Notes: generated from the letters alone by a model not told the origin. A stretch of DNA of 64,000 nucleotides from Synergistaceae bacterium (GCA_009783355.1 WRHH01000004.1:32852-96851); one strand, 5' to 3'. Shown: positions 14,455 through 44,762, counted from the stretch's first letter. Program-made: numbers and translations.

Positions 14455-14853
14455 ATGCAAAATGAAAAGGAGTCAAAATGGATGTATGAAGTTATCTTTT
14501 ATAAAGATAAAAACGGCAATGAGCCAATAAAAGGAGTAGAAAATATGAGAAAGATCAATGACATAGAGTACACAACATTAAATGATCTCTGGGATGATCC
14601 GGCATTACTCACAGCGGACGACAAAGATCGTATAAATTTTGAAGTATCCCTTATTGGCAAACTGATTGAAGCAAGAGAATTGAAGGGATTAACTCAAAAG
14701 GAACTTGCAGATAAGGCAGGTATAAAACAATCAGCCGTTGCGAGGTTGGAGAGCTTGAAAGCAACTCCACAGATTGATACTCTTTTCAAAGTCCTAAAAC
14801 CATTAGGTTACACTTTAGAGATTGTCCCTGACAGAAAACAGATGCAAAAATAA
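14455..14853 (+). CDS. HigB-like toxin remnant (about 30 aa) fused in frame to an intact XRE-family HTH antitoxin (HigA-like)
   Basis: N-terminus WMYEVIFYKDKNGNEPI matches the start of RelE/HigB (Gp49-like) toxins. From MRKINDIEY onward, LKGLTQKELADKAGIKQSAVARLE is an HTH_XRE. AAAGGAG sits 8 nt before the internal ATG at 14545. Confidence 0.6.
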   Translation: MQNEKESKWMYEVIFYKDKNGNEPIKGVENMRKINDIEYTTLNDLWDDPALLTADDKDRINFEVSLIGKLIEARELKGLTQKELADKAGIKQSAVARLESLKATPQIDTLFKVLKPLGYTLEIVPDRKQMQK

Positions 14854-23439: not shown

Positions 23440-23694
23440 ATGTTTTCTGACGATGTAAAACAAATATTGTTCGAAATGGGCGCAGATTTATGCGGTTTTG
23501 CTTCTATTGACCGTTTTAACGAAGCGCCGAAGGGCTTTCATCCTTGCGATGTCCTGCCTTCATGCAAAACGGTGGTTGTTTTTGCTAAACAGTTTCCGAC
23601 CGGCTCGTTGCATTGTAATACAACAGTGCCTTACACTATAAACGGTTATCAATTATATTCGTATCAACAACGAGCCCGTTTTCCACGCTTATGA
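23440..23694 (+). pseudogene. Possible N-terminal fragment of an epoxyqueuosine reductase (QueG)-like gene
   Basis: ILFEMGADLCGFASIDRFNEAP...SCKTVVVFA resembles the QueG N-terminal domain. Only 84 codons, and the ORF overlaps the convergent gene by 58 bp. Confidence 0.3.
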
Positions 23695-24133
23695 GCAGAG
23701 TTTCCTCATAAACAGTTTCATACCCCATATGAACATAATTGAGCACTTCTCCTCTGGGAACTCTCAAAACGCCGGAAAACCAATCCGCAAACAACGGCTC
23801 TTCTCCGGACAACTCAAACAGCCCGATAATGCTTGTGAGAAACAACCGTTTATCCTTTATTTCCCAGCTTCCTATATATAGCCTCCAACATGCGGTTGAA
23901 GAAATTATGGAAGGAAAAGTTCTATTCCTTACTTTCTCTTGAAATTCTTCTTGTGGAAGCGCTCTTATTCTGGGATTACCTACCGGAATCTTCGGCTCGG
24001 TAAACATATTTTCCGTTTTCCCTTCATAAACGAGTATTTCAGGAGTTTGAGCCGTAGCCAAGGCAGCGGTTGGAGTTAAAAGAATACAGCCTAATAGTGT
24101 AACAAAACACACAAATATCACATATTTTTTCAT
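23636..24133 (-). CDS. Hypothetical lipoprotein
   Basis: Signal peptide with LLGC lipobox. 165 aa, no recognisable domain. Confidence 0.5.
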   Translation of the reverse strand: MKKYVIFVCFVTLLGCILLTPTAALATAQTPEILVYEGKTENMFTEPKIPVGNPRIRALPQEEFQEKVRNRTFPSIISSTACWRLYIGSWEIKDKRLFLTSIIGLFELSGEEPLFADWFSGVLRVPRGEVLNYVHMGYETVYEETLLISVENGLVVDTNIIDNRL

Positions 24134-24267: not shown

Positions 24268-24342
24268 TGGAGCGGAAGACGGGATTTGAACCCGCGACCC
24301 CAACCTTGGCAAGGTTGTGCTCTACCCCTGAGCTACTTCCGC
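24268..24342 (-). tRNA. tRNA-Gly (anticodon GCC)
   Basis: Reverse complement reads GCGGAAGTAGCTCAGGGGTAGAGCACAACCTTGCCAAGGTTGGGGTCGCGGGTTCAAATCCCGTCTTCCGCTCCA. Cloverleaf with a GCC anticodon and encoded CCA. Confidence 0.9.
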
Positions 24343-28730: not shown

Positions 28731-28960
28731 CTAAAAATCATTACAAGTATACAAATGTGCAAGCTGTTGGAGGTTGTAAGACCACCAAATAACCTTTTTT
28801 CGACGCGACAAATTTTTTCGCTTCAATGCCTTATCAATATCCACGCCGCCTAACGCGTTCATCATTGCCTTAAGCTCATACGCTATCGCATCTGCTTCAG
28901 CTTTGCTGTTTTCAGCGGCAAGAGCCGTCAAAATCTTTCTTTAGCTTCCAGTTTTTGCTA
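28731..28960 (-). pseudogene. Deletion-derivative remnant of the flotillin/NAD-kinase-like operon
   Basis: 28771..28830 matches 30559..30617 (3' end of the NADK-like gene). 28834..28956 matches 31633..31757 (flotillin C-terminal coding). The fused ORF reads LTALVAENSKAEADA...ALGGVDID. Confidence 0.75.
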
Positions 28961-29031
28961 AATTTGCTCCCATCTGGAACGCATGTTCACAATCTGTTGG
29001 GAATTGTTCCTTTTTCTGTCTTGCTTTGTTG

Positions 29032-30318
29032 TTACCACGGTAAAGGGATTATTTCAAAAGCATTTGCAACAGGGCCGACCGGCATGACCACCCTTCTTCT
29101 CACCGAGATAGCGCCTTCCTCTTTATTAAAGTAGCTCGCCGGGTAGAACCTGTCATCTGACGATGTGCTTCCACTATGATCAGGTTTCCCGGCCGGATAA
29201 TAGGTTATATCCTCAATAACGGAATCGTCAATGCTCTGCCACTGTCCCTGCCTTTTGGGCGTAAGCTGCTCCCTCTCCGTGTAGCCGGGGATGTTCGCGT
29301 TCCAATACGTGAACATACAATTGGTGAAATAGAGGCTGCCGTCGGATTCGCGCCAGTTGCCCGCCTTAAGCGTCATAAGCGAAGCCATGGACATGGAGCC
29401 AACACGGGTATATGTGACCCGCACTTCCTTAAAAGTGCCGTCGTCCTTGAATTCAAAATATATGTCGCCGCCGCCGGCAAGTCCATATTCGCCAATCACA
29501 TGAATCGTGCCGCCCCAAATACCGAAATATTTTTGTTCCTCTGCGGTAGTTGTTCTTGTGGTCAGCGGCTTTACAGGTTTCGGCGGCGGGGGCGCGGCCT
29601 GTTTTTCATGCGCCAAAGGAATATGAACAAAAGCGTTTGCAACAGCCCCGGTCGGCATGACCACCCTTCTTTCGAGGCTGAATGAACCGTTCTCACCATT
29701 GACGTAGCTTGCCGGGTATATACGGTCATATTCACTTTTGGTTCCCGATTTAGTGGGGGCGGACTCTCCGGCGGGGCAGTAAAAAGCGTCCAATATTACG
29801 ACATCGTCCTCGCTTTGCCACTGCAATATGGTCATTGGCGTGATTTGTTCCGCTGCTTCCACGTAACCGGGGTTAAACGTATTCCAGGACGTGGTCATAC
29901 GGTTGGTTAAATAAAGGTTACCGTTGGATAAATGCCAGCTGCCCGCCGCAAAAGTCATTAAGTTGGCATGATACGATAACGGCCTCTCTGACAGTTCCCG
30001 CCGGACGATGCCGACCAATACCTCCTTGAACGTGCCGTCGTCCTTGAGCTCATAATATATTTCCCCTATACCGCTCAGTTCGTCGGGATATCGGTCTATG
30101 TATCTGTAATAGTCCGTGTATCCACGGACGATGCCGCCCCAAATACCGACGTATTTTTGTTCTTCTGCGGCAATCGTTCTTGCAGTCGGCGGTTCGGTCG
30201 CTCCCGGGCTTCCTGCCCTCTGCGGCGCCTGCGCGTCCTGCGCAATGGCGGCGACCGCCGTGGCTGCGAAGATACCAGATGAGATTATTAGCGCGAGGGT
30301 CAAGATTTTCTTTTTCAT
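29032..30318 (-). CDS. Secreted protein made of two tandem homologous domains of about 190 aa each (unknown function)
   Basis: Signal peptide MKKKILTLALIISSGIFAATAVAAIA. Repeats begin TTAEEQKY(V/F)GIWGG and end RRVVMP(T/V)G(A/P)VANAF. Confidence 0.6.
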   Translation of the reverse strand: MKKKILTLALIISSGIFAATAVAAIAQDAQAPQRAGSPGATEPPTARTIAAEEQKYVGIWGGIVRGYTDYYRYIDRYPDELSGIGEIYYELKDDGTFKEVLVGIVRRELSERPLSYHANLMTFAAGSWHLSNGNLYLTNRMTTSWNTFNPGYVEAAEQITPMTILQWQSEDDVVILDAFYCPAGESAPTKSGTKSEYDRIYPASYVNGENGSFSLERRVVMPTGAVANAFVHIPLAHEKQAAPPPPKPVKPLTTRTTTAEEQKYFGIWGGTIHVIGEYGLAGGGDIYFEFKDDGTFKEVRVTYTRVGSMSMASLMTLKAGNWRESDGSLYFTNCMFTYWNANIPGYTEREQLTPKRQGQWQSIDDSVIEDITYYPAGKPDHSGSTSSDDRFYPASYFNKEEGAISVRRRVVMPVGPVANAFEIIPLPW

Positions 30319-32531: not shown

Positions 32532-33251
32532 TTATTTTTTTGTGTATAACTTTGCCGGACGATGCCCTTTGTCGCTCGTATACTTATCAGTTTCCTGAAC
32601 AAGGCCAATAATCTTAAGCCGAAAATTAGCCGTTGGAACCTTTTTCCAAAGAATCGCTTCATATGCGTTTTGAAGCTGAGTCAAAGTGAACTCGAGAGGT
32701 AATAAATGGAAAATTACGTTGCTGTATAGGATTTTAGACTGCAGTCGCCCTAAAGCCATTTTTACGATACCGAAGTGATCAAAACCAAAATCCGGTTCGG
32801 TTATTATGAGCTCCTTGTTCTGGAATACCGGTCTCCGGTCTGATGTATTCTGCACCGTAAACCATACCGCATCGCTTTGATATTTTTTTGACTCTTCTTC
32901 GTTCATAAGGCCTAAATATGATATGGAAATCACTCTTGCGCGCGGATCCCTGTCTAAATCGCAAAATGTGTAAAGTTGTTCTAAATAGCACCGGTCAACA
33001 TGTGACTTCTCGGAAATTTTTCTGCATATATTGTCGCTTGGCATCTCGTCAATATTCAAAAAACCTCCCGGCAAACACCACCTGTCCCGATACGGTTCAA
33101 CCGGTCGCTTGTACAACAGAACCCTTAAATAGGTATCCGGCAGCTTCCTATAACTGTCCGCTTCCTGTGTCTTTATGGTAAAAACAACTGCGTCGGTGCA
33201 AACAAAAGGGTGTTCATAATTATATATACTGCCCACTATCCACGCCTCCAT
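32532..33251 (-). CDS. nrtR: NrtR-family regulator (Nudix-like domain plus C-terminal winged helix)
   Basis: Nudix-like CLPGGFLNIDE. C-terminal FTLTQLQNAYEAILWKKVPTANFRLKIIGL...RPAKLY is typical of the NrtR wHTH. Confidence 0.65.
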   Translation of the reverse strand: MEAWIVGSIYNYEHPFVCTDAVVFTIKTQEADSYRKLPDTYLRVLLYKRPVEPYRDRWCLPGGFLNIDEMPSDNICRKISEKSHVDRCYLEQLYTFCDLDRDPRARVISISYLGLMNEEESKKYQSDAVWFTVQNTSDRRPVFQNKELIITEPDFGFDHFGIVKMALGRLQSKILYSNVIFHLLPLEFTLTQLQNAYEAILWKKVPTANFRLKIIGLVQETDKYTSDKGHRPAKLYTKK

Positions 33252-33265
33252 TAGTTATTATAAAA

Positions 33266-33292
33266 TAGATAATATCACTTAGATATTATCTA
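33266..33292. promoter_or_regulatory. 10-bp inverted repeat (TAGATAATAT-N7-ATATTATCTA), candidate operator just upstream of nrtR
   Basis: Perfect palindrome read directly in the sequence, 15 bp from the nrtR start codon. Confidence 0.4.
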
Positions 33293-33572
33293 ATATAATA
33301 TATCATCATCGGTTTGTCAAGCCCCCCCGCGTTATCTAAAGAAAATCTCTTGCACTCATCATTTTGATATACTATTTTGCTGCTATTAAAAGATATAGTG
33401 TTGCGAAGGAATGTTTCTGAACGGATAAAGACAAAAATTTGTGTTTCCGCTGGCGACACAAATAATCTGTACAAATCATGACGTTTGTTTATGGCTGTAT
33501 TCATGTTAATATATGTAATTATTTTGCAAATAGTAGTATTATTTTGGAAAACGAATTGAATAGAAAGGGTGG

Positions 33573-33839
33573 ATGAATATGGAGCAGAACCATTGCCAAA
33601 GCTGCGGAATGCCGATGGGCGAGGGAGACGGGTTGTATGGGACGAATTCCGACGGAAGTGTAAGCAGCGACTATTGCAGTTATTGTTACGATAATGGGGC
33701 GTTCACGACAAATTCAACGATGGAGGAAATGATCGAAATTTGTGTCCCTCATGTGTTGTCTGCTACCGGTATGAGCGAGCATGACGCGCGAAACATGATG
33801 CTCGGCTTTTTACCGTCGCTTAAGCGCTGGAAGAAATAG
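33573..33839 (+). CDS. Zinc-ribbon domain protein (Zn_ribbon_2-like)
   Basis: HCQSCGMPM...DYCSYCYDNGAFT pattern. Confidence 0.6.
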   Translation: MNMEQNHCQSCGMPMGEGDGLYGTNSDGSVSSDYCSYCYDNGAFTTNSTMEEMIEICVPHVLSATGMSEHDARNMMLGFLPSLKRWKK

Positions 33840-33847
33840 GGCGCGTC

Positions 33848-34264
33848 ATGAGGGACGCGGAACAAACGGTGGGGAACCTCATAGACAAACAGAGCGTTTC
33901 TTTCATAAGCTCCGTGGACGCTGACGGTTTTCCAAATACGAAAGCCATGCTTCCGCCGAGGAAGCGCGAGGGAATAAAGGTATTCTATTTCACCACCAAC
34001 ACGTCTTCAATGAGAGTCTCGCAGTTCATGGCAAACCCAAACGCCTGCATATATTTCTGCGACAAGCGTTTCTTCAGAGGAGTGATGCTCGTCGGCGCCG
34101 TCGAAGTCCTGCATGACAGTAAAAGTAAGGAAATGATATGGCGTGATGGAGACACGATGTACTACTCTAAGGGAGTCACCGACTCGGATTACTGCGTTTT
34201 GAAATTTACCGCGCATAAGGGAAGAATTTACGGAAACTTCAAATCGGAGGATTTTTTGGTATAA
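33848..34264 (+). CDS. Pyridoxamine 5'-phosphate oxidase-family FMN-binding protein (general stress protein 26-like)
   Basis: 138 aa with a split-barrel pattern (FISSVDADGFPNTKAM...ACIYFCD...GVMLVGAVEV). Confidence 0.55.
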   Translation: MRDAEQTVGNLIDKQSVSFISSVDADGFPNTKAMLPPRKREGIKVFYFTTNTSSMRVSQFMANPNACIYFCDKRFFRGVMLVGAVEVLHDSKSKEMIWRDGDTMYYSKGVTDSDYCVLKFTAHKGRIYGNFKSEDFLV

Positions 34265-34271
34265 CATATTT

Positions 34272-34420
34272 AAAATAATATGTGGGACGGTAATCCCATA
34301 ACACTTGAACAAGGCGGCATTGACAGGATTTTCAATACCGTCAATCTGTTTAACAAAGATAACGCGCATATTTTTCGGCGGCAAAGCAACAACGCGAATA
34401 GATGGAGGGTATTATATTTG
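34272..34420 (+). pseudogene. Duplicated 3' fragment of the phzF-like gene
   Basis: About 145 bp, roughly 90% identical to 36228..36365. Encodes MWDGNPITLEQGGIDRIFNTVNLF. Confidence 0.7.
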
Positions 34421-34508
34421 AAGATAATTCTAAGCTGCGTTATTTTTATAATAGCGATGGCTTAAAAATGACCAACGAACAGTTTAAAAACTAAAGGAGC
34501 GGAGGATA

Positions 34509-34802
34509 ATGCTGACAATTGATTTTATAAAAGAGACAGTAATTCCATTAGCAAAAAAATATGATATTGTAAAAATCGATTTATTCGGTTCATACGCCAG
34601 TGGAAAGGCAAATGATAAATCTGACGCGGACTTCCTTGTTACGTTCAAAGTCGAAGTACCATCCATTTTTAGAGTTATGGGATTTAAGCATGAACTTGAA
34701 ACCAGTTTGAATCATCCCGTTGACATAGTTACGTTGCCGCAGTCGCGACCAGAAAAGCTGCTTATTGAAGAGGTGGTTAGTATATATGAATATGCGGGAT
34801 AG
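34509..34802 (+). CDS. mntA: Nucleotidyltransferase antitoxin (MntA-like)
   Basis: GSYASGKANDKSDADFLV (GSxxxGxxxxxSDxD). Confidence 0.7.
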   Translation: MLTIDFIKETVIPLAKKYDIVKIDLFGSYASGKANDKSDADFLVTFKVEVPSIFRVMGFKHELETSLNHPVDIVTLPQSRPEKLLIEEVVSIYEYAG

Positions 34803-35112
34803 AACACATATTGACAGGATTAAGAAGGAATTATGCTTTATTAAAAGAACTACAGGACAGATTAGCAAAGAAAAGTTCTTATCAGATGACGTTTTTCAGC
34901 ACGCGATTTCAATGTCCTTAATAACCATCGGCGAATGCGCAAATCATTTATCAGAAGAATTCAAAGAACACCATCCGCAAATACAATGGATACAAATAAT
35001 TGCGGTCAGAAATATTGCTTCACATGGTTATTGGCAGCTTGACATGAAGCAGATATGGAAAGCCGTCGAAGAAGACATACCCGAACTTATGGAATTCTTT
35101 CTGAAATTTTGA
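34765..35112 (+). CDS. hepT: HepT-like (DUF86/HEPN) toxin
   Basis: RNIASHGYWQLD (Rx4HxY motif). Overlaps mntA by 38 bp. Confidence 0.7.
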   Translation: MKRWLVYMNMRDRTHIDRIKKELCFIKRTTGQISKEKFLSDDVFQHAISMSLITIGECANHLSEEFKEHHPQIQWIQIIAVRNIASHGYWQLDMKQIWKAVEEDIPELMEFFLKF

Positions 35113-35483
35113 ACATCAATGGCAAAGGAAATGGCGATGAGTGAGTGGGATAAAAAGTAGCTATGGAAATGATTGCTGTTAATCTGTTTTCGTTGGTCGG
35201 GATTTTAAGAAGCTGTTTTTCCGTTTGCATTGCATCCAACTCACACATGAAGATGATGTGTTGCGGCTTTGGTTATGGGTAATGAATATATCCCCCTTGA
35301 ACACCTCTCGAAATCATGATTCTTGCGGCGAAGTCGATTCCTCCTTCACAACCGCTAAACTTATAACCCAAAGGTTTCAATATTCTAATTATGCTGTTTA
35401 TCTGCGGGGAGTGGACAGCATTTTCAAGCCTTGCGATATTGTTGTATTATAGTATTGGCATGTATTTGGGGGAGAGTGATTTT

Positions 35484-36365
35484 ATGAAAAAATATGATTA
35501 CAAAAAAGTTGACGCTTTTACTTCCAATAACTCGTTAGGAAATCCTGCGGCTTGCGTTTATTTAAACGAAGGACAGTCATTGGCTGAGGATGAAATGCTA
35601 AGCATCGCGAAACAGCATAAAGGTTTTGTTTCGGAAGTTGTTTACTGCACAAATAATGGCAGTTGCGGTTTTGACTTGGCGTATTATTCATCGGAATGCG
35701 AAGTCCCGTTTTGCGGCCATGGCACAATTGCATGTATGTATTCGTTGATAAAAGATTCTCCTGAATTGTTGAAACAGTCGGAGATAATTATTCATACCCG
35801 AACCAAAGGAAGCCTCATAATTTACAATAAAATAACTGAACAGGACGCAGTTTACATTTCAGCGCCCGAGCCGGTATATTCATCTGTTCCTATATCTTTA
35901 GAAGCTATTATTGATTGCTTAAGCGTGGATATATCGGCGATTTCAGACGCTTATCCTGTTGATTTTATCGACGCGGGAAACAGAACTCTAATCATACCGA
36001 TAAGAGGCTTGGAAGACGAAATAAACATCTTCCCGAATGAGCAAACCTTAAAAGAATTCTCGTTGAATAACGGCATAGACGTTATTTTGATTTTCTGCAC
36101 AGAAGTAATGGACGAAGCGCATTTTGCGCATACGAGGGTGTTCGCGGCGAAATACGGCTATCTTGAAGACCCCGCTACAGGCTCTGCAAATAGCGCTTTC
36201 GGCTATTATCTTCTGAAAAATAATATGTGGGACGGCAATCCCATAACACTTGAACAAGGCGGCATTGACAGGATTTTCAATACCGTTAATCTGTTTCACA
36301 AAGATAATAGAATATTTTTCGGCGGCAAAGCGACAACGCGAATAGAAGGGGTTTATTATATTTAA
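35484..36365 (+). CDS. PhzF-family isomerase-like protein
   Basis: KVDAFTSNNSLGNPAACVYL, FCGHGTIA. Start at MKKYDYK, with a GGGGGAGAG RBS. Confidence 0.75.
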   Translation: MKKYDYKKVDAFTSNNSLGNPAACVYLNEGQSLAEDEMLSIAKQHKGFVSEVVYCTNNGSCGFDLAYYSSECEVPFCGHGTIACMYSLIKDSPELLKQSEIIIHTRTKGSLIIYNKITEQDAVYISAPEPVYSSVPISLEAIIDCLSVDISAISDAYPVDFIDAGNRTLIIPIRGLEDEINIFPNEQTLKEFSLNNGIDVILIFCTEVMDEAHFAHTRVFAAKYGYLEDPATGSANSAFGYYLLKNNMWDGNPITLEQGGIDRIFNTVNLFHKDNRIFFGGKATTRIEGVYYI

Positions 36366-36457
36366 TAGTTTTTAACAAAAGAGCAGATAAATCAAATCCC
36401 CTGTAAACGCTTTTTGCGTGCAGGGGAAAACTCACTTTAGTCTGAGGAAAAGAAGCG

Positions 36458-37456
36458 TTAGTTTATCATACTTTGTATTTGTTCCACGGGCAAACCTGTA
36501 CTCTTAGTGATTATTTCCAGTGGTATTCCATTAAAAAGAAGATTCCTTGCCACTTCTTCTTTACCTTTTACAAAGCCTTTTTCCATGCCTTTTTCCATGC
36601 CTTTTTCCATGCCTTTTTCCATGCCGCGCTCTTCAGCCATTCTTTCTTCCACTTGTTTAAGAAAAGGCTCATACATAAGCTTTCCCTCCTTATTCAGTTG
36701 TTGGCAGTATTCCCAATATTGTTTCTGCAACATTTCATCTTTCAGATTTAATATACGTATTATAAAAAGTACAAGGTCGCGTTTCTCGTTCTTGTCCCAG
36801 CTCCGTTCAGCGAGAAGTTCCGTCAACGTTCGCAGGTATTTAAACTTCTGAATCTCCTCTTTTGTTTTCTGCGCACACATTGCAGCGTAAAGGGCTAGGT
36901 CTATCGGGTTGTCGCTTATTCGTAACTCGTCGTCGTTGAGTTCCATCAAAACGAGATTATTATACCTGTAAACAATTTCCGTGCCAAAATTGGAATGAGA
37001 ATAAAACCGCTCATCTTTTCTATGACCGCTTGTAATGATAGCCAGAGCCACTGGATTTTTCCTGTAATGCGCATATATCAGACAACAGTAATGAAACATT
37101 CTCTCGGCAAGATTGCCTCCACCAGAACCTTGTTGAGCCTCACAATGGAGGAGTATCCACTTATCATTCCCGTTTTTCAATGGCACTTCAAGTATGAGAT
37201 CGGCAAAATGCGGGCTCGTATGAATTGACGGGTCTCCCGTATTCAGGATGTCACGAAATTCCTTATCGAGAAGCCGGTGAGACCGGTTCGTATCAACTGC
37301 ATTGTAAAGCTCCGGGAGCGCCCTTTTAAGCAAATAGTAAATGAAACGGTCTATTAAATCCTTCCAATAACTATCGTAATCGAAATATTCCTGCTTTTCG
37401 GAGCCGTTATAATATGCCCCCGTATTCGCTATATCTGTGATGTTCTCTGCCGTCAT
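36458..37456 (-). CDS. Rpn-family (YhgA-like) PD-(D/E)XK recombination-promoting nuclease/putative transposase
   Basis: N-terminal PD-(D/E)XK core. C-terminal DUF4351-like tail with (GMEK)x4 encoded by a 12-nt tandem repeat at 36576..36625, and ARNLLFNGIPLEIITKSTGLPVEQIQ. Confidence 0.65.
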   Translation of the reverse strand: MTAENITDIANTGAYYNGSEKQEYFDYDSYWKDLIDRFIYYLLKRALPELYNAVDTNRSHRLLDKEFRDILNTGDPSIHTSPHFADLILEVPLKNGNDKWILLHCEAQQGSGGGNLAERMFHYCCLIYAHYRKNPVALAIITSGHRKDERFYSHSNFGTEIVYRYNNLVLMELNDDELRISDNPIDLALYAAMCAQKTKEEIQKFKYLRTLTELLAERSWDKNEKRDLVLFIIRILNLKDEMLQKQYWEYCQQLNKEGKLMYEPFLKQVEERMAEERGMEKGMEKGMEKGMEKGFVKGKEEVARNLLFNGIPLEIITKSTGLPVEQIQSMIN

Positions 37457-37512
37457 AAGCTTTCACCTCTGAATGAACCATTATAACACGTTTCTTCTAA
37501 AAACACCGGAAT

Positions 37513-37582
37513 ATCACTGAACAGGACGCAGTTTACATTTCAGCGGCAAAGCGACAACGCGATTAGGGGGGTATTATTATTG
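37513..37582 (+). pseudogene. Internally deleted remnant of the phzF-like gene
   Basis: 37515..37544 matches 35838..35867, then joins directly to a match of 36322..36360. Confidence 0.6.
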
Positions 37583-37843
37583 AGTTCGGAAAACTATACT
37601 GCTCAATTCTCAATTTCAGGCGGGCACATTATTGTTGCCTTAATTGTTGTCATTCTTCAGACAGCCTTTTGCTGATGTATAAAGCATTGTTCAAAACTCT
37701 TGTGATATAGACCGTTTCAAACCTGATTACAAAGAAAACTATATAATTATCAACAATCAATGACTAAAACCACTTGGAACACTCAGCTTCTGAACCTATT
37801 ATCTATATTCGTTACGTCATATATTCAAAGGACAACTCTCTTC

Positions 37844-38704
37844 TCATGATCCATTTTCAGCTTCAGTACCCCCACGCTGTATGAAATCAATTAGCTTTTT
37901 CGTAATGATATAAGGTAAAGCAGGTTTATCTATCTCCTTGATAACCTTTAAATATAAATCAGAGTCAATTGAATGTCCCAGTTTTTTTGCTGATTCCTTT
38001 AAGCGTTTTAGTTCATAATTTACTATTTTGTTAGTAATTTCGCGCTGTCTGCCTAGATGCAGCTTGTTTTGACTCATAATTAGTTCGTCGCGCATGACAT
38101 CGAAAAGAAATTTGTCGCGGTTTAGCCAATCTGCTAATATCTGCTCGTAATTGGTTATAATTAAGCTCTTTGTCATGTTATCTGATGCTACTGCGCATTG
38201 TAAGGCTGCATATATATAATTCACACATTCATCCACACCAGAACAAATATTTCTAATATATGACCCCCATTTATTCGATTGAAGCTGCGGAATACTGAAG
38301 AAAAACTCGTCTTGATCCATTTTAAAAAAATCGTGAACATCTGTCAGTATTTTCCTATTTTTGGAAAAAACATCAGCATTGACATTATGGCAATAAACAT
38401 ATCGTAAAGCATTTATCTTTTTAACATACTCTTCAACATAATCCATCTTTTGGTCGTTCAGGGAACCTTTATTATTCAGCATATTAAGTAATTTTTTTAT
38501 ATTAGGCATACAGTCAAAAAACAATCCATAGATATTAGTCACGGCGCACCAAAACAGTCCTTCGTCATTGCTACACTGATGTGCTTTTGGCGCGTAATAG
38601 GCAGCGAAAAAAAGACGCGGTGATAAATGGGATGCCATATATATATTTATTTCTTCAATTTTGCGTGTTGTAAATGCAACCCCATCTATGTAATTATCAC
38701 TCAT
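37844..38704 (-). CDS. Hypothetical 286-aa protein translationally coupled to the SIR2/NTPase gene
   Basis: Start ATG overlaps the upstream stop by 8 bp. No recognisable motif. AT-rich codon usage. Confidence 0.6.
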   Translation of the reverse strand: MSDNYIDGVAFTTRKIEEINIYMASHLSPRLFFAAYYAPKAHQCSNDEGLFWCAVTNIYGLFFDCMPNIKKLLNMLNNKGSLNDQKMDYVEEYVKKINALRYVYCHNVNADVFSKNRKILTDVHDFFKMDQDEFFFSIPQLQSNKWGSYIRNICSGVDECVNYIYAALQCAVASDNMTKSLIITNYEQILADWLNRDKFLFDVMRDELIMSQNKLHLGRQREITNKIVNYELKRLKESAKKLGHSIDSDLYLKVIKEIDKPALPYIITKKLIDFIQRGGTEAENGS

Positions 38705-41700
38705 TCGCTTGACCGTCTTTCGGAGTCAGCCCACGGAAAGCGGCAAGTCCCATGTAACCTAATCCAAGCTGAAAATCGTCGCATGACACACCACTTTTTA
38801 TTTCAATTCCTTTTATATTCCATTTGCGAAAATAAATATCCCTACCACCGTTATTATCTCTACTTATTCTTCCAATGCGGACATAATTACCGCTTAGAAC
38901 ATTATCTGGTGTGTTTTGGTTAAAATTACCGCTGAATTCTAAAGGCTTTCCTTTTTCGTCGCAAAGAATATGTTTTGTGCGGATACGATCATTGCCCCGT
39001 TGCTCAACTAATTCGGTACAATTGCGTATTTTGTTGATTGTTTGCCCGTAAGCACTGTATTGTTCTAGATGTAGGTTCGCTAATGCCATGACATAAAAGA
39101 ACAACAGCGTTTTTGGCGTGCAATCTTGATTTCCGCAAAAATCACGGCATACACCGAGTATATCTTTCCATTGGTCGTTTGTCATCGCAGTAAACTGTTC
39201 TTCAGCTGTAAAAATCGGCGTTTTATTATATGCAATCCATTTTAGTTTTAACCGTTGCCTCTGGCAGATATGATCTTTTATTGTTATTACAGCATATTCA
39301 TTCTCGTCATAATATTTCGCGCATATTTCACGGCATCTTAAAGCTTGGTCATTGTTGAATGCTTCAATTCGGTTTTCATACTCTCTTTGGCGTTTAGTAA
39401 TTCCAGCAGTCTCCATTTCTCTGGCCACTTTCAAATAGACAGCATATGGATTTCCATCAATAATGAGGCTATTAATATATTCATCACTTAAGGAAGAATC
39501 TATCTTTCTATAAATCCCTTCGGCAGGATTAATAAAATTCGAATCTTGTGCAACATAAACATACTCATCCTGAGTCTTTCGTATCAAATTATCAGCGGAA
39601 GCAAGCAATTCAACTGTTTTGGCCTGCGGCAATTTGTCGCAAAATTTCAAGGTAAGCCATAATTTAGTGCTGATAATATACCCGTTATCCGGTGCGTAGC
39701 CAAGCTGCTCGTCTAAATCCTTACTAAGTTCCATATATTCTCGTTCATCATATTTGTTTTCATACTCCATCAGATTTATGCAACAGTTTACCCTTTCAAC
39801 CACCAAGCTTGTAAGTAGACGTGACGAAATTTGTCCATGTCTCTTTTCAATTTGGATGGCTTCGTTGCAAATTATAACAGCATCACGTAACATTTTCTGT
39901 TTGTTGTCGTTTATGTGTCTATTCTCACTTTCTAGCATTTTTATATACTCGCGGATGTATGACGCCTCTTGCACCACGAGTGGCGATAATAGTGATCCTT
40001 GCTCTCGTGATTCGCGTAACGCATCAATTATCTTTTCATATTCCTCGGATGTCAAACGCTGAAAATCCTTGGAGTTTGGACCTATCCTAATCAACAACTT
40101 TACAATTAAGTTCACCTCGGTTTTATCATTGTAATTCAGGGTCATTATAATATTCACAATCTGGTTAACTTCTTCAGACTCAATTATCTTTTGTGACCGT
40201 AAATAAATCATTGCTTCGCCACGGGTTCTGAACCGTACAGCGTAATCGGAAAACTCATATTCGTCATATGTCAGATAAATCATGGATGAAAGCACTTCCT
40301 TTACCCGGTGATCATATAGATTTATCAGACGCAGTATAAGCGAAAAAGGCATGAAGAGGTCATATTTTGTGCATATGGCCGTGTTTACTAGTGCTTTCTT
40401 AATGTTATTAATAATTTTATCTTCGTCGTTATTTGTTTGCCCTTTTTCGTTTGTAATAAATCCTGAATTTTTTAAGGCTATTTTTATCTGGCTTGTTTCG
40501 TATTTTTCAGCAATAAGCTTTTCGACAAAATCTTTACTAGAATATTGAATTACATTCTCAATATAATTGCCCATACCTTTTTCAATCCCAAGTCGCGTGT
40601 CTGTGAGTGAGGTGTATAGGAACAGCATGAAATTATTACGCAATTCTTCTGATTTTTTAAGTTGTTCAATTACTTTGTCAATATACACCTGTTCCCATCG
40701 CGCTTTGCGACTAAGAATCTGCTTGAGATGGTTGATTTCAAGAGAATCATCACCCATATTCAATGATTTATTTGTTTCAAGGAACTGAAAATAGGTTTTT
40801 TTTACACTTTTTGTGATTTGTTGCGTCATATGCTCATCTATGCTTTCGTATTTGTCTGCGTTTTCATATGCAGTAAAAACAAATTGGACATTACGCGCGC
40901 GGGTATGCTTTATGTAGTTACATAAACTCCTGCATTTTAGCATGTCGCTGGTAAAAGCCGACAAATCCCAAATGACAAGTGAACACTTAGCTCCAATTTT
41001 TTCAAGCTGGTGTAAAACATTATCTAAGACATTCATTTCACCATCAGCATTCTCAATCCTTCCGCTTGGAGACATCATAACTTCGCGATGAAAATCTATG
41101 TCCTTTTTGTTTATAAAGATAACAGGGTATTCTTTTTCGTAAAAAACGCGGTATGCTAAGTAAGCAACTGCAACACTTTTACCACTACTTGGTTCTCCTT
41201 TAAGACATATCGGATAGTTATCTTGCTTTTTTTCTTCAGTACCGGGATTCTTTAGACCTTTATTCACTCGTTTGAACAATTCTTCATCGTGAGCTCGCAC
41301 TAAATTAAACTTATTCTTGTAACCGTACCATGCTGGGGAAGTGGTGCTCTCCTTTAAAAAACTGGAAAATTCTGTTTCTATGTATTGTGGAAGTACTATG
41401 CGCCTGTTAATTTCTTCTTCAGTCAGCAATGTTGCAAATTCATTGAAGCGCACCAAATCCTTTTTATCTATAAAGCAAGCTTTGCCAGCTACGTACACTT
41501 TTGTTTTGTCGCTTTCGTAATGAAGGCTATAGGAATTGTCATACTCGTCATTGACTGAGTCATCGGGTACGGTAAATTCTTCGCTTAAGCATAGTATTGG
41601 GGTGGGATCTTCGTTCTCCATGTCTCGTTCGGGTAATATTTCTTTTACTAGTATATCTTTGACACCAAAAAAGATAACAGAGCTGTCACGTTTTACACTA

Positions 41701-42152
41701 TAGAGGAAGTCTTGCATTTCGCTTGTAATAAATGCATCGTTTTCGGAATAGCCTACAAAGATGAAACTACCGCCATTCTTTAGCCTGTCATCAAGAACTC
41801 TTTCTAAAGCTTTTCGGGCTGTCTTTTGGTCGCGTTGAGATGGTTTTGCTCTTGATACTGATTCAATTTCCGGTGTTCCGAAAAGATAGCATATTTTTAG
41901 GTTTCGTTGCTTAGGAAAGCACGGATCGTCGATGGACACCAATCTCACTTGTCTGTATGAAGGAAGGGCTTTTGTTACGGCGTTACACAACGCCAAATCT
42001 CGTTGCGAAGTTATAATGAGCCACCATTTCTGCTTGAGGATGCGCAAGTTTTCTTCATTTGCTAAGTCAAAACTCTCGCCGACAAACAACACGTGCGGTT
42101 CTGAATCTAAGTTGTCCAGAATTCTACTGGAAATATCCTTTACGTTTTGCAT
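38697..42152 (-). CDS. 1151-aa protein with an N-terminal SIR2-like domain, a central P-loop NTPase and a C-terminal helical region (candidate antiphage defence NTPase, SIR2-STAND-like)
   Basis: N-terminus HVLFVGESFD...LIITSQRD...IFVGYSENDAFI (SIR2_2-like). Walker A GEPSSGKS near residue 320, and hhhhD Walker B LVIWDLSAF. The remaining roughly 700 aa are helical. Confidence 0.65.
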   Translation of the reverse strand: MQNVKDISSRILDNLDSEPHVLFVGESFDLANEENLRILKQKWWLIITSQRDLALCNAVTKALPSYRQVRLVSIDDPCFPKQRNLKICYLFGTPEIESVSRAKPSQRDQKTARKALERVLDDRLKNGGSFIFVGYSENDAFITSEMQDFLYSVKRDSSVIFFGVKDILVKEILPERDMENEDPTPILCLSEEFTVPDDSVNDEYDNSYSLHYESDKTKVYVAGKACFIDKKDLVRFNEFATLLTEEEINRRIVLPQYIETEFSSFLKESTTSPAWYGYKNKFNLVRAHDEELFKRVNKGLKNPGTEEKKQDNYPICLKGEPSSGKSVAVAYLAYRVFYEKEYPVIFINKKDIDFHREVMMSPSGRIENADGEMNVLDNVLHQLEKIGAKCSLVIWDLSAFTSDMLKCRSLCNYIKHTRARNVQFVFTAYENADKYESIDEHMTQQITKSVKKTYFQFLETNKSLNMGDDSLEINHLKQILSRKARWEQVYIDKVIEQLKKSEELRNNFMLFLYTSLTDTRLGIEKGMGNYIENVIQYSSKDFVEKLIAEKYETSQIKIALKNSGFITNEKGQTNNDEDKIINNIKKALVNTAICTKYDLFMPFSLILRLINLYDHRVKEVLSSMIYLTYDEYEFSDYAVRFRTRGEAMIYLRSQKIIESEEVNQIVNIIMTLNYNDKTEVNLIVKLLIRIGPNSKDFQRLTSEEYEKIIDALRESREQGSLLSPLVVQEASYIREYIKMLESENRHINDNKQKMLRDAVIICNEAIQIEKRHGQISSRLLTSLVVERVNCCINLMEYENKYDEREYMELSKDLDEQLGYAPDNGYIISTKLWLTLKFCDKLPQAKTVELLASADNLIRKTQDEYVYVAQDSNFINPAEGIYRKIDSSLSDEYINSLIIDGNPYAVYLKVAREMETAGITKRQREYENRIEAFNNDQALRCREICAKYYDENEYAVITIKDHICQRQRLKLKWIAYNKTPIFTAEEQFTAMTNDQWKDILGVCRDFCGNQDCTPKTLLFFYVMALANLHLEQYSAYGQTINKIRNCTELVEQRGNDRIRTKHILCDEKGKPLEFSGNFNQNTPDNVLSGNYVRIGRISRDNNGGRDIYFRKWNIKGIEIKSGVSCDDFQLGLGYMGLAAFRGLTPKDGQANE

Positions 42153-42556
42153 GATTCACTCCTCATTCTACAAAATTAGTTTTTCTTATTTATAAACTGT
42201 ATAGCTGTATAATATTTTTAAGAAAGTTATAAAATTCCAGATAACGACTTAATTATTATAGCTTAAAAATTCAGTTTATGTTTGAATGCTTATAATCTCT
42301 GGAAGCAGGTTGTCGATAAGTCCAAAAAATCCAGCATTTCTATTTCTCTATTCAACACCCGTTTTTTCGTGTGCTATTTCGTCATAACAACCCTGCTTTC
42401 TGGTGTTCTTCAAGCTCGCGTAAGTAAGAGCTGAGATCTGCCTGATACTTCAACTAAATCTGGTATTGTAGCTGACGGATTGTATTTTAATATATCAAGA
42501 ATTGAATCTATATTTTATAATAATATCAAATACTCTGACACAAAGGAGAGTGCGCC

Positions 42557-42778
42557 ATGGATCGCAACTTTGCTCAAACTAAAAAGATGACTCTATATCA
42601 CGGGAGCAACATGGCTGTTGAGAATCCCGTTATTATACATTCCCCGAGAACTCTTGACTTCGGAGAAGGTTTTTACACCACTACAAACAAACTGCAAGCG
42701 GAGATATTCGCACAAAAAGTTTTGGGCAGGAGAAAAACGGGCGTTGCGATCGTTAATGTCTGCACTGTAAGGGGGTAA
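42557..42778 (+). pseudogene. DUF3990-like protein, apparently truncated at 73 aa
   Basis: MTLYHGSN...[12 protein letters not shown]...QAEIFA matches the DUF3990 N-terminus. Ends prematurely just before the next gene. Confidence 0.45.
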
Positions 42779-42782
42779 AGGC

Positions 42783-43022
42783 GTGGAAAAGGATAAATTT
42801 GCTGCTATGATGGAAATGCTCGTTCCACAGGTTGTAGCGCTTATTGCGGAACGCAGGAACGTGACGACGCTTGACGCTATAAAACTTTTCTATGCGTCCG
42901 CGCTCTATGAGCGTCTTGAAGTTGAAGAAACCAAGCTGTGGCATCTTAGCGCCCTAACACTATATACTTTATTCGAAGAAGAACTGGACACAGGCAAAAT
43001 CACCTACCCCGAGGAGGCGTAA
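42783..43022 (+). CDS. DUF3791-like protein
   Basis: 79 aa. MEMLVPQVVALIAERRNVTTLDAIKLFYASALYERLEVEETKLWHLS pattern. Confidence 0.5.
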   Translation: MEKDKFAAMMEMLVPQVVALIAERRNVTTLDAIKLFYASALYERLEVEETKLWHLSALTLYTLFEEELDTGKITYPEEA

Positions 43023-43025
43023 TCG

Positions 43026-43238
43026 GTGGATAGCAAAACAAAATTCTTGATATATTGCATGGAGATATACAAGCGCGAAAAAGAATTGAATGGAGTGCAG
43101 GTCTTGGATCATTTTTCGAGGTACAACCTGTTTAACTACGTGCTGGAATTCTACGAAATATTACATATTCATGGTGTTTCCTACATATTGCATGACATAA
43201 ACAATTACATCTCCGAGCAAAATAGAGCATATTCATAA
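43026..43238 (+). CDS. DUF3791-like protein (second paralog)
   Basis: LIYCMEIYKREKELNGVQVLDHFSRYNLFNYVLEFYEILHIHGVSYILHDINNYI. Confidence 0.5.
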   Translation: MDSKTKFLIYCMEIYKREKELNGVQVLDHFSRYNLFNYVLEFYEILHIHGVSYILHDINNYISEQNRAYS

Positions 43239-43502
43239 AATGAAAACATCCCGCCCTTACGACAAAGATTCCCGTCCATGTCCCGTATTGCACAAATAAT
43301 AATTGGAAGTTATAATTTTTGATAGAAAGAAAGTAATCGTAAAAGCGGGCGGCAATCACGTATATGTATGGAGTACTCGCCAGTATAAGTGATTGTTGTG
43401 GTTATTCGAACTGGCAGCAATGGTAAAACGGGCGGTTCAATGAGACCTCCGGTTCACATGGGGCTCATTTACTTCACAAAACACGAAAGGAAGTGCAGGG
43501 CA

Positions 43503-44762
43503 ATGTTGGTAAAATCAAAAGCGGTAAAGTTTTTTCTGGTGTTGGTATTTGTTCTTGCGGTGAGTAGCGCGTCGTTTGCAGCGGAGAAGATAATCAAGAT
43601 TGGTACGATATTCCCGCATACAGGGCCGGCGGCAGTCTCCGGGCAGAACTGTGTTGCGGCGGTCGAGACTGCGGTCGAGTTCATCAATAACAAGTACGAC
43701 TGGGAAGGGTTCCCCCTCGCTCAAAAAGAGGGACTGCTTGACGGATACAAAATAGTACTCGTCAATGCGGATCATCAAGGAAAACCTGACATCGCGAAGT
43801 CCGAAGCGGAGCGCCTCTATGAAGAAGAAGGCGTCTTTGCCATCATCGGGTGTTACAACAGCTCATCAAGTAAACCTGCCAGCGCAGTTGCCGAGCGCCT
43901 TGAGAAGATTTTCATGTGCGGCGCGTCCAGTTCCGCAGAGTTGACGGAGCGAGGCTTCAATTACTTTTTCAGAACAGCTGCAACCGACGCGATTGAGTCG
44001 GCGGAGTTCGGCGAATACATCGAGCACCTTAACAAAGAGAAGGGCACGAATCTGACAACGCTCGGGCTTATCTATGAGAACTCCGAGTTTGGAAAGCACG
44101 CTGCGGACGAAGGAAAGAAAGTTGCGGCAAAGATGGGAATAAATGTTGTGGCGGACATCCCGTTCACAGTTGGCGCCACGAACATGGACAGCGAAATTCA
44201 GACTCTCAAGGCGGCTAATCCTGATGTCGTCTTCGGCGCGGCGCTTGGCGGAGACTATTCCCTTATGGTGCGCACGATGAAGCAGAGCAACTGGGCGTCC
44301 AAAATTTTCATCAATTACTGCACAGGATATCAGAATCCCGCGATAAACAAGGAACTTGGAGCGGACAGCAGTTACTACATGGGCGGTATGGGTTATTCCC
44401 CTGAAATAGCTGAGGTATACATGAAGGCAGCACTTCCCGCGCAAGAGATCTATCGTGCTAAAACAGGATTTCCTCTCGACTCAGACTCAATTCAGGAGAC
44501 AGTTTGTCTGCATGTACTAGCGCAGGCCATTGAGAAAGCCGGTGTTCTGAACACGGAGAAGGTAGTTGAAATACTGCGCACTGAGACATTTGATTCCCCG
44601 CTCTCGCTGAGCGGAAAAGTAGCGTTCGCCCCCGGCGGTCAGAACAGCAAAGCTTTCACCGTAATCACTCAGCTGCTTGACCTGAAATATCGCACGGTCT
44701 TCCCCGCAAGCTACGCGGATTCCGAGCTGATATACCCGTTCCCTGCTTGGGATAAGAGATAG
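43503..44762 (+). CDS. livK: Branched-chain amino acid ABC transporter substrate-binding protein
   Basis: Start at MLVKSK, with an AGGAAG RBS and a signal peptide. Type I periplasmic binding fold pattern. The ORF-track start at 43389 is an upstream extension. Confidence 0.75.
   Translation: MLVKSKAVKFFLVLVFVLAVSSASFAAEKIIKIGTIFPHTGPAAVSGQNCVAAVETAVEFINNKYDWEGFPLAQKEGLLDGYKIVLVNADHQGKPDIAKSEAERLYEEEGVFAIIGCYNSSSSKPASAVAERLEKIFMCGASSSAELTERGFNYFFRTAATDAIESAEFGEYIEHLNKEKGTNLTTLGLIYENSEFGKHAADEGKKVAAKMGINVVADIPFTVGATNMDSEIQTLKAANPDVVFGAALGGDYSLMVRTMKQSNWASKIFINYCTGYQNPAINKELGADSSYYMGGMGYSPEIAEVYMKAALPAQEIYRAKTGFPLDSDSIQETVCLHVLAQAIEKAGVLNTEKVVEILRTETFDSPLSLSGKVAFAPGGQNSKAFTVITQLLDLKYRTVFPASYADSELIYPFPAWDKR

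Follow-up and report, generated by a model that had tools for sequence, protein, structure and literature searches.

A probable composite defence island between nrtR and the liv operon of a termite-gut Synergistaceae bacterium, with a candidate two-gene SAMD9-like STAND system

Bacterial defence genes are reportedly gathered in islands and variable hotspots, as Makarova et al. are said to have described in 2011 and Doron et al. in 2018. This work concerns a candidate island of this kind in a Synergistaceae bacterium, found in a window of 64,000 nucleotides (GCA_009783355.1, WRHH01000004.1:32852-96851; the window is the whole stretch of DNA analysed, and all positions are counted from its first letter). 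In this window, about 10 kb of AT-rich DNA separates the regulatory gene nrtR from the branched-chain amino-acid (liv) operon, and this block includes a gene for a STAND NTPase of 1151 aa together with a gene for a partner protein of 286 aa. With a probability of roughly 0.7, the block is a composite defence island of four anti-phage-type modules, brought together stepwise by homology- and microhomology-mediated recombination without an integrase; the same figure covers the mechanism proposed below for the STAND pair.

Two kinds of system are among the closest described ones. The first are the SAMD9-like STAND proteins, which in bacteria comprise Avs5, Avs6 (with a PNP domain) and Avs9 (with an AlbA_2 domain), all of them fused to their effectors (Legrand et al., PMC12680541). 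The NADase activity of Avs5 requires the motifs GAGxS and TTNxD, with residues N110 and D112 (PMC12931631). Human SAMD9 holds, in this order, SIR2-like, delta, NOD, TPR1, TPR2 and OB domains, and its solved chains start at the SIR2-like domain, which has been judged unlikely to bind NAD and is used as an oligomerisation interface (PMC13600222). The second kind are the rpn genes, which specify both RpnL, a toxic endonuclease, and RpnS, an antitoxin translated from within the gene; the hallmark of RpnS is a series of four-residue repeats beginning 8-20 residues after its start (Zhong et al., PMC10400941). These genes cluster with defence genes and are not autonomously mobile, and they are regarded as antiphage toxin-antitoxins and not as transposases (PMC10400941). 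Rpn proteins also promote RecA-independent recombination (PMC5350276).

Composition, modules and scars of the block

An earlier note on this stretch, made from the sequence alone, described an AT-rich accessory island at 33252-43400. The compositional claim holds for most of that segment, which has a GC content of 0.386 compared to 0.465 in the remaining window. The k-mer scan that the note had proposed reveals deviation in both GC and tetranucleotide usage: in 2-kb windows, the GC z-score goes down to -3.4 and the tetranucleotide distance z-score goes up to +5.6, with the peak at 38-42 kb. The AT-richness is nonetheless uneven among the genes, as measured by the GC content of third codon positions (GC3), for which 48 long open reading frames (ORFs) outside the block served as the host reference (mean 0.51, sd 0.07, minimum 0.373). 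The outliers are MntA (0.34), HepT (0.39), the STAND gene (0.365) and its partner (0.321), the last two lying under every one of the 48 other long ORFs, and the spread within the block runs from 0.32 to 0.49. PhzF (0.41) and Rpn (0.44) fall in the lower part of the host range, the zinc-ribbon gene (0.62) and the PNPOx-like gene (0.61) are host-like, and the Liv genes give 0.59-0.64. Because the zinc-ribbon and PNPOx genes are host-like, the start of the atypical block has been moved to 34265, the first base past the PNPOx stop codon, and the block extends from there to about 42556. The deviant composition by which genomic islands are generally recognised is found over 34265-42556 but not in these two genes, which probably are residents and not island cargo, and the left 1 kb of the island as first drawn is native in composition. 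The DUF3990/DUF3791 tail, up to 43238, shows an intermediate composition.

The gene families named in the earlier note have all been confirmed with Pfam, NCBIfam and PADLOC models (Zn_ribbon_2, PNPOx_N, MntA, HepT, PhzF, Rpn, DUF3990 and two DUF3791, plus NrtR in the flank; Table 1). The modules would be four: the MntA/HepT pair, an RpnL/RpnS-type nuclease, a two-gene STAND system, and a degraded DUF3990/DUF3791 (PDC-M13) set. A defence island is recognised by at least two adjacent systems, and here MntA/HepT, Rpn and PDC-M13 are identified by models and the STAND pair by fold.

GSx10DxD and R-x4-H-x-Y are the signature motifs of MNT/HEPN systems. Both can be read intact in the translations of MntA and HepT, whose genes are adjacent and overlap, and the pair also gives a match to PADLOC PDC-S09 (9e-19); it looks like a standard member of this type VII toxin-antitoxin family, with no difference noted. 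The Rpn protein carries, in its C-terminal region, the repeat (MEKG)x4, located 18 residues after an internal methionine and encoded by four 12-nt tandem repeats in 36553-36624. It is predicted to fit the RpnL/RpnS gene-within-gene type because of these four-residue repeats shortly after an internal start and because of its match to TIGR01784. Its setting among defence genes is a further likeness; the difference is that its score of 57.3 bits lies barely above the curated cut-off of 52.1. Given the reported activity of Rpn proteins, it could have contributed to the assembly of the block. On the strand opposite to the repeat tract, gene callers might be misled by long spurious ORFs rich in 'FFHA' (36473-36851).

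The third of the modules recognised by models consists of a DUF3990 gene and two DUF3791 genes, which match strongly and in order the components A, B and C of the PADLOC candidate system PDC-M13. In contrast to that system, DUF3990 retains here only the first ~60 of 159 profile positions (1-60 of 159 in PADLOC, 1-57 of 152 in Pfam), while a full-length protein would have about 155 aa, and its stop codon is located 4 nt before the following gene. Since this component is truncated, the set is probably inactive.

DUF3990 is one of several gene scars in the region. The most telling ones derive from PhzF, of which copy B is intact. Remnant A is the last 148 nt of the gene, with a 1-nt indel; its first base lies 8 nt past the stop codon of PNPOx, and its last one falls where the PhzF stop codon would be. 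A foreign PhzF allele (L112) shares 91% identity with the initial 76 nt of the remnant, a likeness about equal to that with the resident copy. Remnant C consists of two PhzF matches that overlap by 8 nt (TTTCAGCG / TTTCGGCG), with the microhomology TTTC(A/G)GCG; this overlap points to a microhomology-mediated internal deletion, and the remnant is read as what this deletion left of a third PhzF copy. In BLAST, remnant A obtains an E-value of 3e-55, and the other remnant matches obtain 5e-9 and 2e-7. Three PhzF 3' ends stand at module junctions. PhzF homologues with 79-82% protein identity occur elsewhere amid unrelated neighbours, and the gene appears from these contexts to be a 'floating' one. 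Finally, the spacer upstream of PhzF holds, on the minus strand, a remnant of 25 aa that reads '...ARLE...PQI...ILKPLGYKF' and resembles the C-terminus of the XRE-type helix-turn-helix (HTH) ORF at 14455-14853 of the same window. The description of the region as an accessory mosaic with truncated gene copies is therefore upheld by PhzF remnants A and C and by the DUF3990 and HTH scars. The more specific statement that truncated copies of resident genes are interspersed applies only to PhzF, which is the sole resident gene copied in this way.

A STAND NTPase with a conserved partner gene

The protein pair announced earlier as 'SIR2/NTPase' turned out to be differently organised: both folds are present according to Foldseek, but a single protein of 1151 aa holds them, and the second gene encodes a small unrelated partner. 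The two proteins are identical to entries FWF87_02265 and FWF87_02260 of NCBI, both named 'MAG: hypothetical protein' (MAG, metagenome-assembled genome), and neither reaches the threshold of any Pfam, NCBIfam, PADLOC or PHROGs model; the best that the STAND protein obtains are E-values of 0.011 with nSTAND_NTPase5 and 0.013 with SIR2_2. A word-index search returned only two relatives of it, with 39% and 33% identity. A profile search over 1.84 billion representatives revealed a larger family (about 500 clusters at 50% identity), in which 503 representatives reach E<=1e-3 and 222 of these reach E<=1e-30; they are for the most part full length (1100-1270 aa) and are called 'hypothetical protein' wherever the sources name them. 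Neither plasmids nor phages gave a tblastn match to the STAND protein, and the PDB gave no sequence match at E<=1.

The family assignment comes from the relatives. Pfam nSTAND_NTPase5 is found in 30 of 42 at E<=1e-3 (39 of 42 at E<=1), and 15 show a weak nSTAND3 signal. SIR2_2 is matched by none of the 42 at E<=1e-3 and lies outside the 25 Pfam families most often matched at E<=1; no AVAST model matches any of them either, and at E 1e-3 PADLOC yields only a few weak matches to mad8, PDC-S01 and HerA. No description of nSTAND5 turned up in the literature search.

The architecture was approached by means of an AlphaFold2 model built from a 42-sequence input, with a mean pLDDT (the per-residue confidence score of the program) of 82.6. 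When this model was compared with the PDB by Foldseek, the best match was human SAMD9 (E=4.5e-20, over ~1300 alignment columns), followed by EfAvs5 'SIR2-STAND' (E=8.9e-14) and the AVAST5 filament (E=1e-9). The TM-scores are low (0.25-0.35 overall, 0.25-0.28 for SAMD9), as would be expected of multi-domain proteins modelled or solved in different conformations, and hence the SAMD9 match concerns the domain order and the local fold rather than a rigid-body superposition. In the model, the protein would open with a SIR2-like Rossmann domain of degenerate type (about aa 1-195) and a small beta unit; an NOD of the nSTAND5 type and helical TPR-like repeats would follow, and an OB-like beta domain (aa 1059-1140) would form the C-terminus. 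Since the match is collinear with SAMD9 chains that start at the SIR2-like domain, the order of domains is the same in both proteins.

Walker A (K325) and Walker B (D396) are invariant in 53 of 53 family members. Of the SIR2 motifs, only G25 and T48 persist, the asparagine position of TTNxD holds Asn in 4 of the 53, and HG is replaced by FG, so that the SIR2-like domain is predicted to be catalytically degenerate.

The partner ORF overlaps the stop codon of the STAND gene by 8 nt, and a homologue of it (over a family range reaching E=1e-41) is located directly 3' of the STAND gene in all seven loci examined, usually overlapping it. Eleven partner sequences share the invariant residues N20, P39, N57, Y59, D64, R101, H106, N107 and P264, among which R101-x4-H106-N107 forms a motif present in 11 of 11. 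Its AlphaFold2 model is all-alpha, with a pLDDT of 59. HEPN RNases are marked by an R-x4-6-H motif in an all-alpha four-helix domain; the motif and the all-alpha model of the partner would suit such an assignment, and searches of Pfam, NCBIfam, PADLOC and the PDB yielded neither a profile match nor a matching fold for it.

Five other STAND loci with flanking sequence could be surveyed for neighbours. Among these neighbours are a cytosine methylase together with DUF4928 and Vsr, CTD11/MC7, DUF2326 and AbiEii, and further GmrSD, AAA_15/21, HicAB, RhuM and a HaeIII-type restriction enzyme. The locus of the closest relative of the pair (39%), represented by two assemblies (L103, 14724-19824, and L104), is a dense defence island in which the cytosine methylase and DUF4928 are followed by the CTD11/MC7 genes and DUF2326; the Vsr gene is seen in L104 only.

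On these grounds, a mechanism can be proposed. The C-terminal TPR/OB region would sense a phage product, upon which the NOD would bind NTP and oligomerise, with the dead SIR2-like domain providing, as in SAMD9, the surface for assembly. Once formed, the complex would switch on the small partner; this would be the effector, perhaps an RNase of the R-x4-H (HEPN-like) kind, and its activation would lead to abortive infection. Under this proposal, the pair (37844-42152) would be an undescribed two-gene antiviral 'split SAMD9', in which a dead SIR2 assembly module is kept and the killing activity has been moved to the R-x4-H-N partner. We put this identification forward tentatively, at somewhat less than an even chance; a new Avs-type variant is plausible.

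A competitor of this proposal is that the pair has nothing to do with defence and lies in the island by chance, as a STAND NTPase of housekeeping or regulatory function together with its adaptor. It would account for the lack of a detectable known effector domain, of a PADLOC match and of a recognisable fold in the partner; it does not account for a fold whose closest matches are the antiviral SAMD9 and Avs5, for five other loci with restriction-modification, Abi, GmrSD and toxin-antitoxin neighbours, or for the patchy distribution and atypical composition of the pair. A role outside defence is considered unlikely.

Origin of the block and its flanks

The block had been placed between two conserved operons, and comparison with related genomes was expected to define its empty site. 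The first statement could be examined on the nrtR side. Scans with NrtR returned about 100 loci (22 from genome contigs and 80 from metagenome contigs); the order nrtR-SPFH-next gene is kept in about 13 related loci, and a junction of nrtR with liv is seen in none. For NrtR, looking up the exact protein gave no match, its best relative has 84% protein identity, and the closest relatives of this flank all come from termite-gut metagenomes. Neither liv nor any island gene stands beside nrtR on the island side in any of these loci, and that side, different in nearly every relative examined, has no gene in common with the window. Because no relative joins nrtR to liv, the empty site is not definable, and no island-free strain was found. 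Synteny of the whole segment in all relatives, together with uniform composition, had been named as the sign of a segment that is no island; the segment is non-syntenic and its composition is uneven.

The mosaic itself is not an assembly artefact, since three assemblies, including the window, have the same junctions: the record of a second sample (L106) shows 99.55% identity to the window along 15.8 kb of collinear sequence, and a read-run assembly (L107) is 100% identical over 6 kb. Two of the loci with a STAND protein identical to that of the window were considered as island-free strains and rejected, as they belong to the same population. Of the 71 differences between the window and L106, 60 fall within 28954-30000 (in the region of the gene at 29032-30318) and 6 more in 63 bp of PhzF (35855-35917), with none in ~8 kb of defence genes between; these clusters resemble what short tracts of recombination, or a mixture of strains in the assemblies, would leave. 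As the source of the mismatches at 35855-35917, gene conversion of PhzF by the remnants was discarded, given that remnant C has the window allele at 35855.

For the composite island, we infer a horizontal origin and the following order of events. The well-conserved 3' end of PhzF would have served as a homology anchor on one side, with illegitimate joins on the other; each acquisition or deletion would leave a scar, and the microhomology deletions would come later. The repeated insertions and deletions invoked in the earlier note are suggested by several scars, including the PhzF ends and the microhomology deletion, though not as insertion at a definable empty site. Features of site-specific integration are lacking: no integrase or recombinase is found among the ORFs with Pfam or NCBIfam, there is no tRNA gene in the block or within 9 kb of it (the sole one is at 24268), no inverted or flanking direct repeats beyond chance occur at the block, and PHROGs gives no phage family (and no phage structural gene) except for the Rpn 'transposase'.

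An origin without acquisition has to be weighed against this. The block might be ancestral, that is, a slowly decaying array of PhzF paralogues and their neighbours generated within the lineage by tandem duplication and then deletion, with a low GC due to weak selection or low expression. The 92% identity of remnant A to the resident PhzF suits such a history, but the remnant is about as near the foreign L112 allele, and PhzF homologues with about 80% identity have unrelated neighbours. The GC3 values of PhzF and Rpn lie within the host range, whereas those of the STAND gene and its partner lie under all 48 other long ORFs, and relatives of the pair, at 33-39% identity, occur in quite different genomes and contexts. 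Two assemblies differing at 0.45% of sites have the same structure, there are no mobility genes, and no island-free relative is known, all of which is in keeping with long residence; the ~100 nrtR loci, with no gene in common with the window on the island side, are not. Ancestry of the block is therefore regarded as improbable. A single insertion of a transposon, integrative element or prophage fragment, now decayed, is very improbable, for although the AT-rich block is contiguous and its Rpn gene is annotated as a putative transposase with a PHROG 3300 'transposase' match, the block holds no terminal repeats, integrase, tRNA target or phage structural or replication genes, its GC3 is heterogeneous, the PhzF scars between the modules indicate several events, and Rpn proteins have been reported to be defence toxin-antitoxins without autonomous mobility, not transposases (PMC10400941).

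Some observations weigh against the composite defence island. First of all, acquisition is argued from composition and mosaic structure, with neither an empty site nor an island-free strain found among the nrtR loci, and two of the genes concerned, PhzF and Rpn, are not compositional outliers. Second, the STAND protein of the window falls below the Pfam thresholds for nSTAND5 and SIR2_2, and no member of its family convincingly matches a PADLOC model.

The remaining features of the region are collected in Table 1. The substrate-binding gene of the liv operon, which begins the right flank, starts near 43503 according to an independent gene call. Nowhere in the region is the AT content higher than in the spacer between nrtR and the zinc-ribbon gene (33252-33572, 321 bp, GC 0.30), and the first ~70 bases of this spacer are kept in two relatives: the nrtR upstream DNA at 33268-33323 shares 82% identity with L039 (56 nt) and 81% with L028 (54 nt). 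This conservation is consistent with putative nrtR regulatory DNA, such as an NrtR operator or a promoter. An Rfam scan of 30-47 kb gave no RNA family.

Table 1. Genes and gene remnants from nrtR to the start of the liv operon (window coordinates).
Feature	Position	Strand	Evidence or remark
nrtR (NUDIX + NrtR winged-helix regulator)	32532..33251	-	Pfam NrtR_WHD 2e-17, NUDIX; left flank, outside island
Zn_ribbon_2 gene	33573-33839	+	Pfam 1e-30
PNPOx-like gene (PNPOx_N)	33848-34264	+	Pfam 7e-14
PhzF remnant A	34272..34419	+	92% identity to 36217-36363, E=3e-55
MntA	34509-34802	+	Pfam Polbeta 3e-12, NTP_transf_2 3e-11
HepT	34786-35112	+	Pfam HepT-like 4e-23
XRE-type HTH C-terminal remnant, antitoxin-like	35363..35437	-	tblastn 52% over 25 aa, E=1e-5
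PhzF copy B, intact isomerase gene	35484..36365	+	Pfam PhzC-PhzF 2e-32, TIGR00654 4e-35
Rpn-family PD-(D/E)XK nuclease, 'putative transposase'	36458..37456	-	TIGR01784 57.3 bits; PHROG 3300 2e-18
PhzF remnant C	37510..37584	+	PhzF nt 346-381 joined to nt 834-876
286-aa orphan STAND partner	37844..38704	-	homologue downstream in 7/7 family loci
1151-aa STAND NTPase	38697..42152	-	AlphaFold2 model + Foldseek; Pfam nSTAND_NTPase5 in relatives
DUF3990, cut to 73 aa	42557-42778	+	Pfam DUF3990; PADLOC PDC-M13A 9e-24
DUF3791 gene 1	42783-43022	+	PADLOC M13B 6e-31
DUF3791 gene 2	43026-43238	+	PADLOC M13C 5e-25
Liv branched-chain amino-acid ABC substrate-binding protein	43389..44762	+	Peripla_BP_5/6 on identical L106 gene; GC3 0.59; right flank begins

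Two further low-GC patches are present in the window. The second one, at 14-16 kb (GC z-score -2.1), contains the ORF 14455-14853 (+), which encodes 132 aa with the C-terminal half of a HigA-like XRE-type HTH protein and an N-terminal extension, and hints at another toxin-antitoxin-like mini-island. The third, at 23-25 kb (tetranucleotide z-score 3.0), surrounds the ORF 23636-24133 (-), which encodes 165 aa with a signal-peptide-like N-terminus and has the lowest GC3 (0.373) among the long ORFs outside the island; it adjoins tRNA-Gly(gcc) at 24268-24342, the only tRNA gene of the window.

The scans also returned NrtR homologues with 60-74% identity on termite-gut MAG contigs (GTDB genome contigs) labelled as Methanimicrococcus, Methanomassiliicoccaceae, Coriobacteriia and Clostridiales (L001, L002, L005, L007 and L009), one of which, L009, keeps the bacterial nrtR-SPFH order. 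These labels probably reflect mis-binning, or else wide horizontal transfer.

Comparison with described systems

As an island, the block would be an ordinary one, an example from the termite gut and from the under-sampled phylum Synergistota. It shares with the defence islands already described the clustering of unrelated defence and toxin-antitoxin modules, the atypical composition, the mosaic content and the decayed genes. It differs from them in lacking an integrase, a tRNA gene or hotspot flanks, and in having junctions marked by fragments of a metabolic gene, PhzF. Scarred by three PhzF 3' ends and by a microhomology deletion, it would show how defence genes accumulate by illegitimate recombination and not by means of integrases.

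The STAND pair reaches further, should the proposal prove true. SAMD9 and SAMD9L are human antiviral and disease genes in which the SIR2-like domain is non-enzymatic, and a bacterial family that combines a SAMD9 core and a dead SIR2 domain with an effector that can be detached would be a tractable model of how activation is transmitted. It would also add a widespread and unannotated family to the catalogues of defence systems. The 589-clade STAND catalogue of PMC13581612 may include this clade without naming it.

Among bacterial systems, a close one is Avs5 (AVAST type 5, SIR2-STAND; PDB 9jap and 9nc9; PMC12931631), which shows the same succession of a SIR2-like Rossmann domain, a STAND NOD and a helical sensor. 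The window protein has the Walker A/B STAND NTPase of Avs5, but of the nSTAND5 and not the nSTAND3 family. While Avs5 is a single-gene system with catalytic motifs, the window family lacks these motifs and exhibits an nSTAND5-type NTPase, a C-terminal beta domain and a conserved second gene. The absence of catalytic SIR2 motifs, the different NTPase family and the second gene place the window protein outside Avs5.

The comparison with human SAMD9 and SAMD9L (PMC13600222, PMC12680541, PMC5445408) is closer in structure, as this is the best structural match and is collinear across nearly the whole STAND protein, even though sequence similarity to SAMD9 is undetectable by PDB sequence search. The core architecture of SAMD9 and Avs9 is present, and their AlbA_2 effector is absent: no AlbA_2 (Schlafen-like) hit is found in the STAND protein or its 42 relatives, and the protein begins with the SIR2-like domain. 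No description of a SAMD9-like STAND protein with its effector in trans was found in the literature. At the N-terminus of SAMD9 and Avs9 there is a tRNase effector, AlbA_2, and Avs6 has a PNP domain; the window family has no N-terminal effector and is accompanied instead by a separate partner gene.

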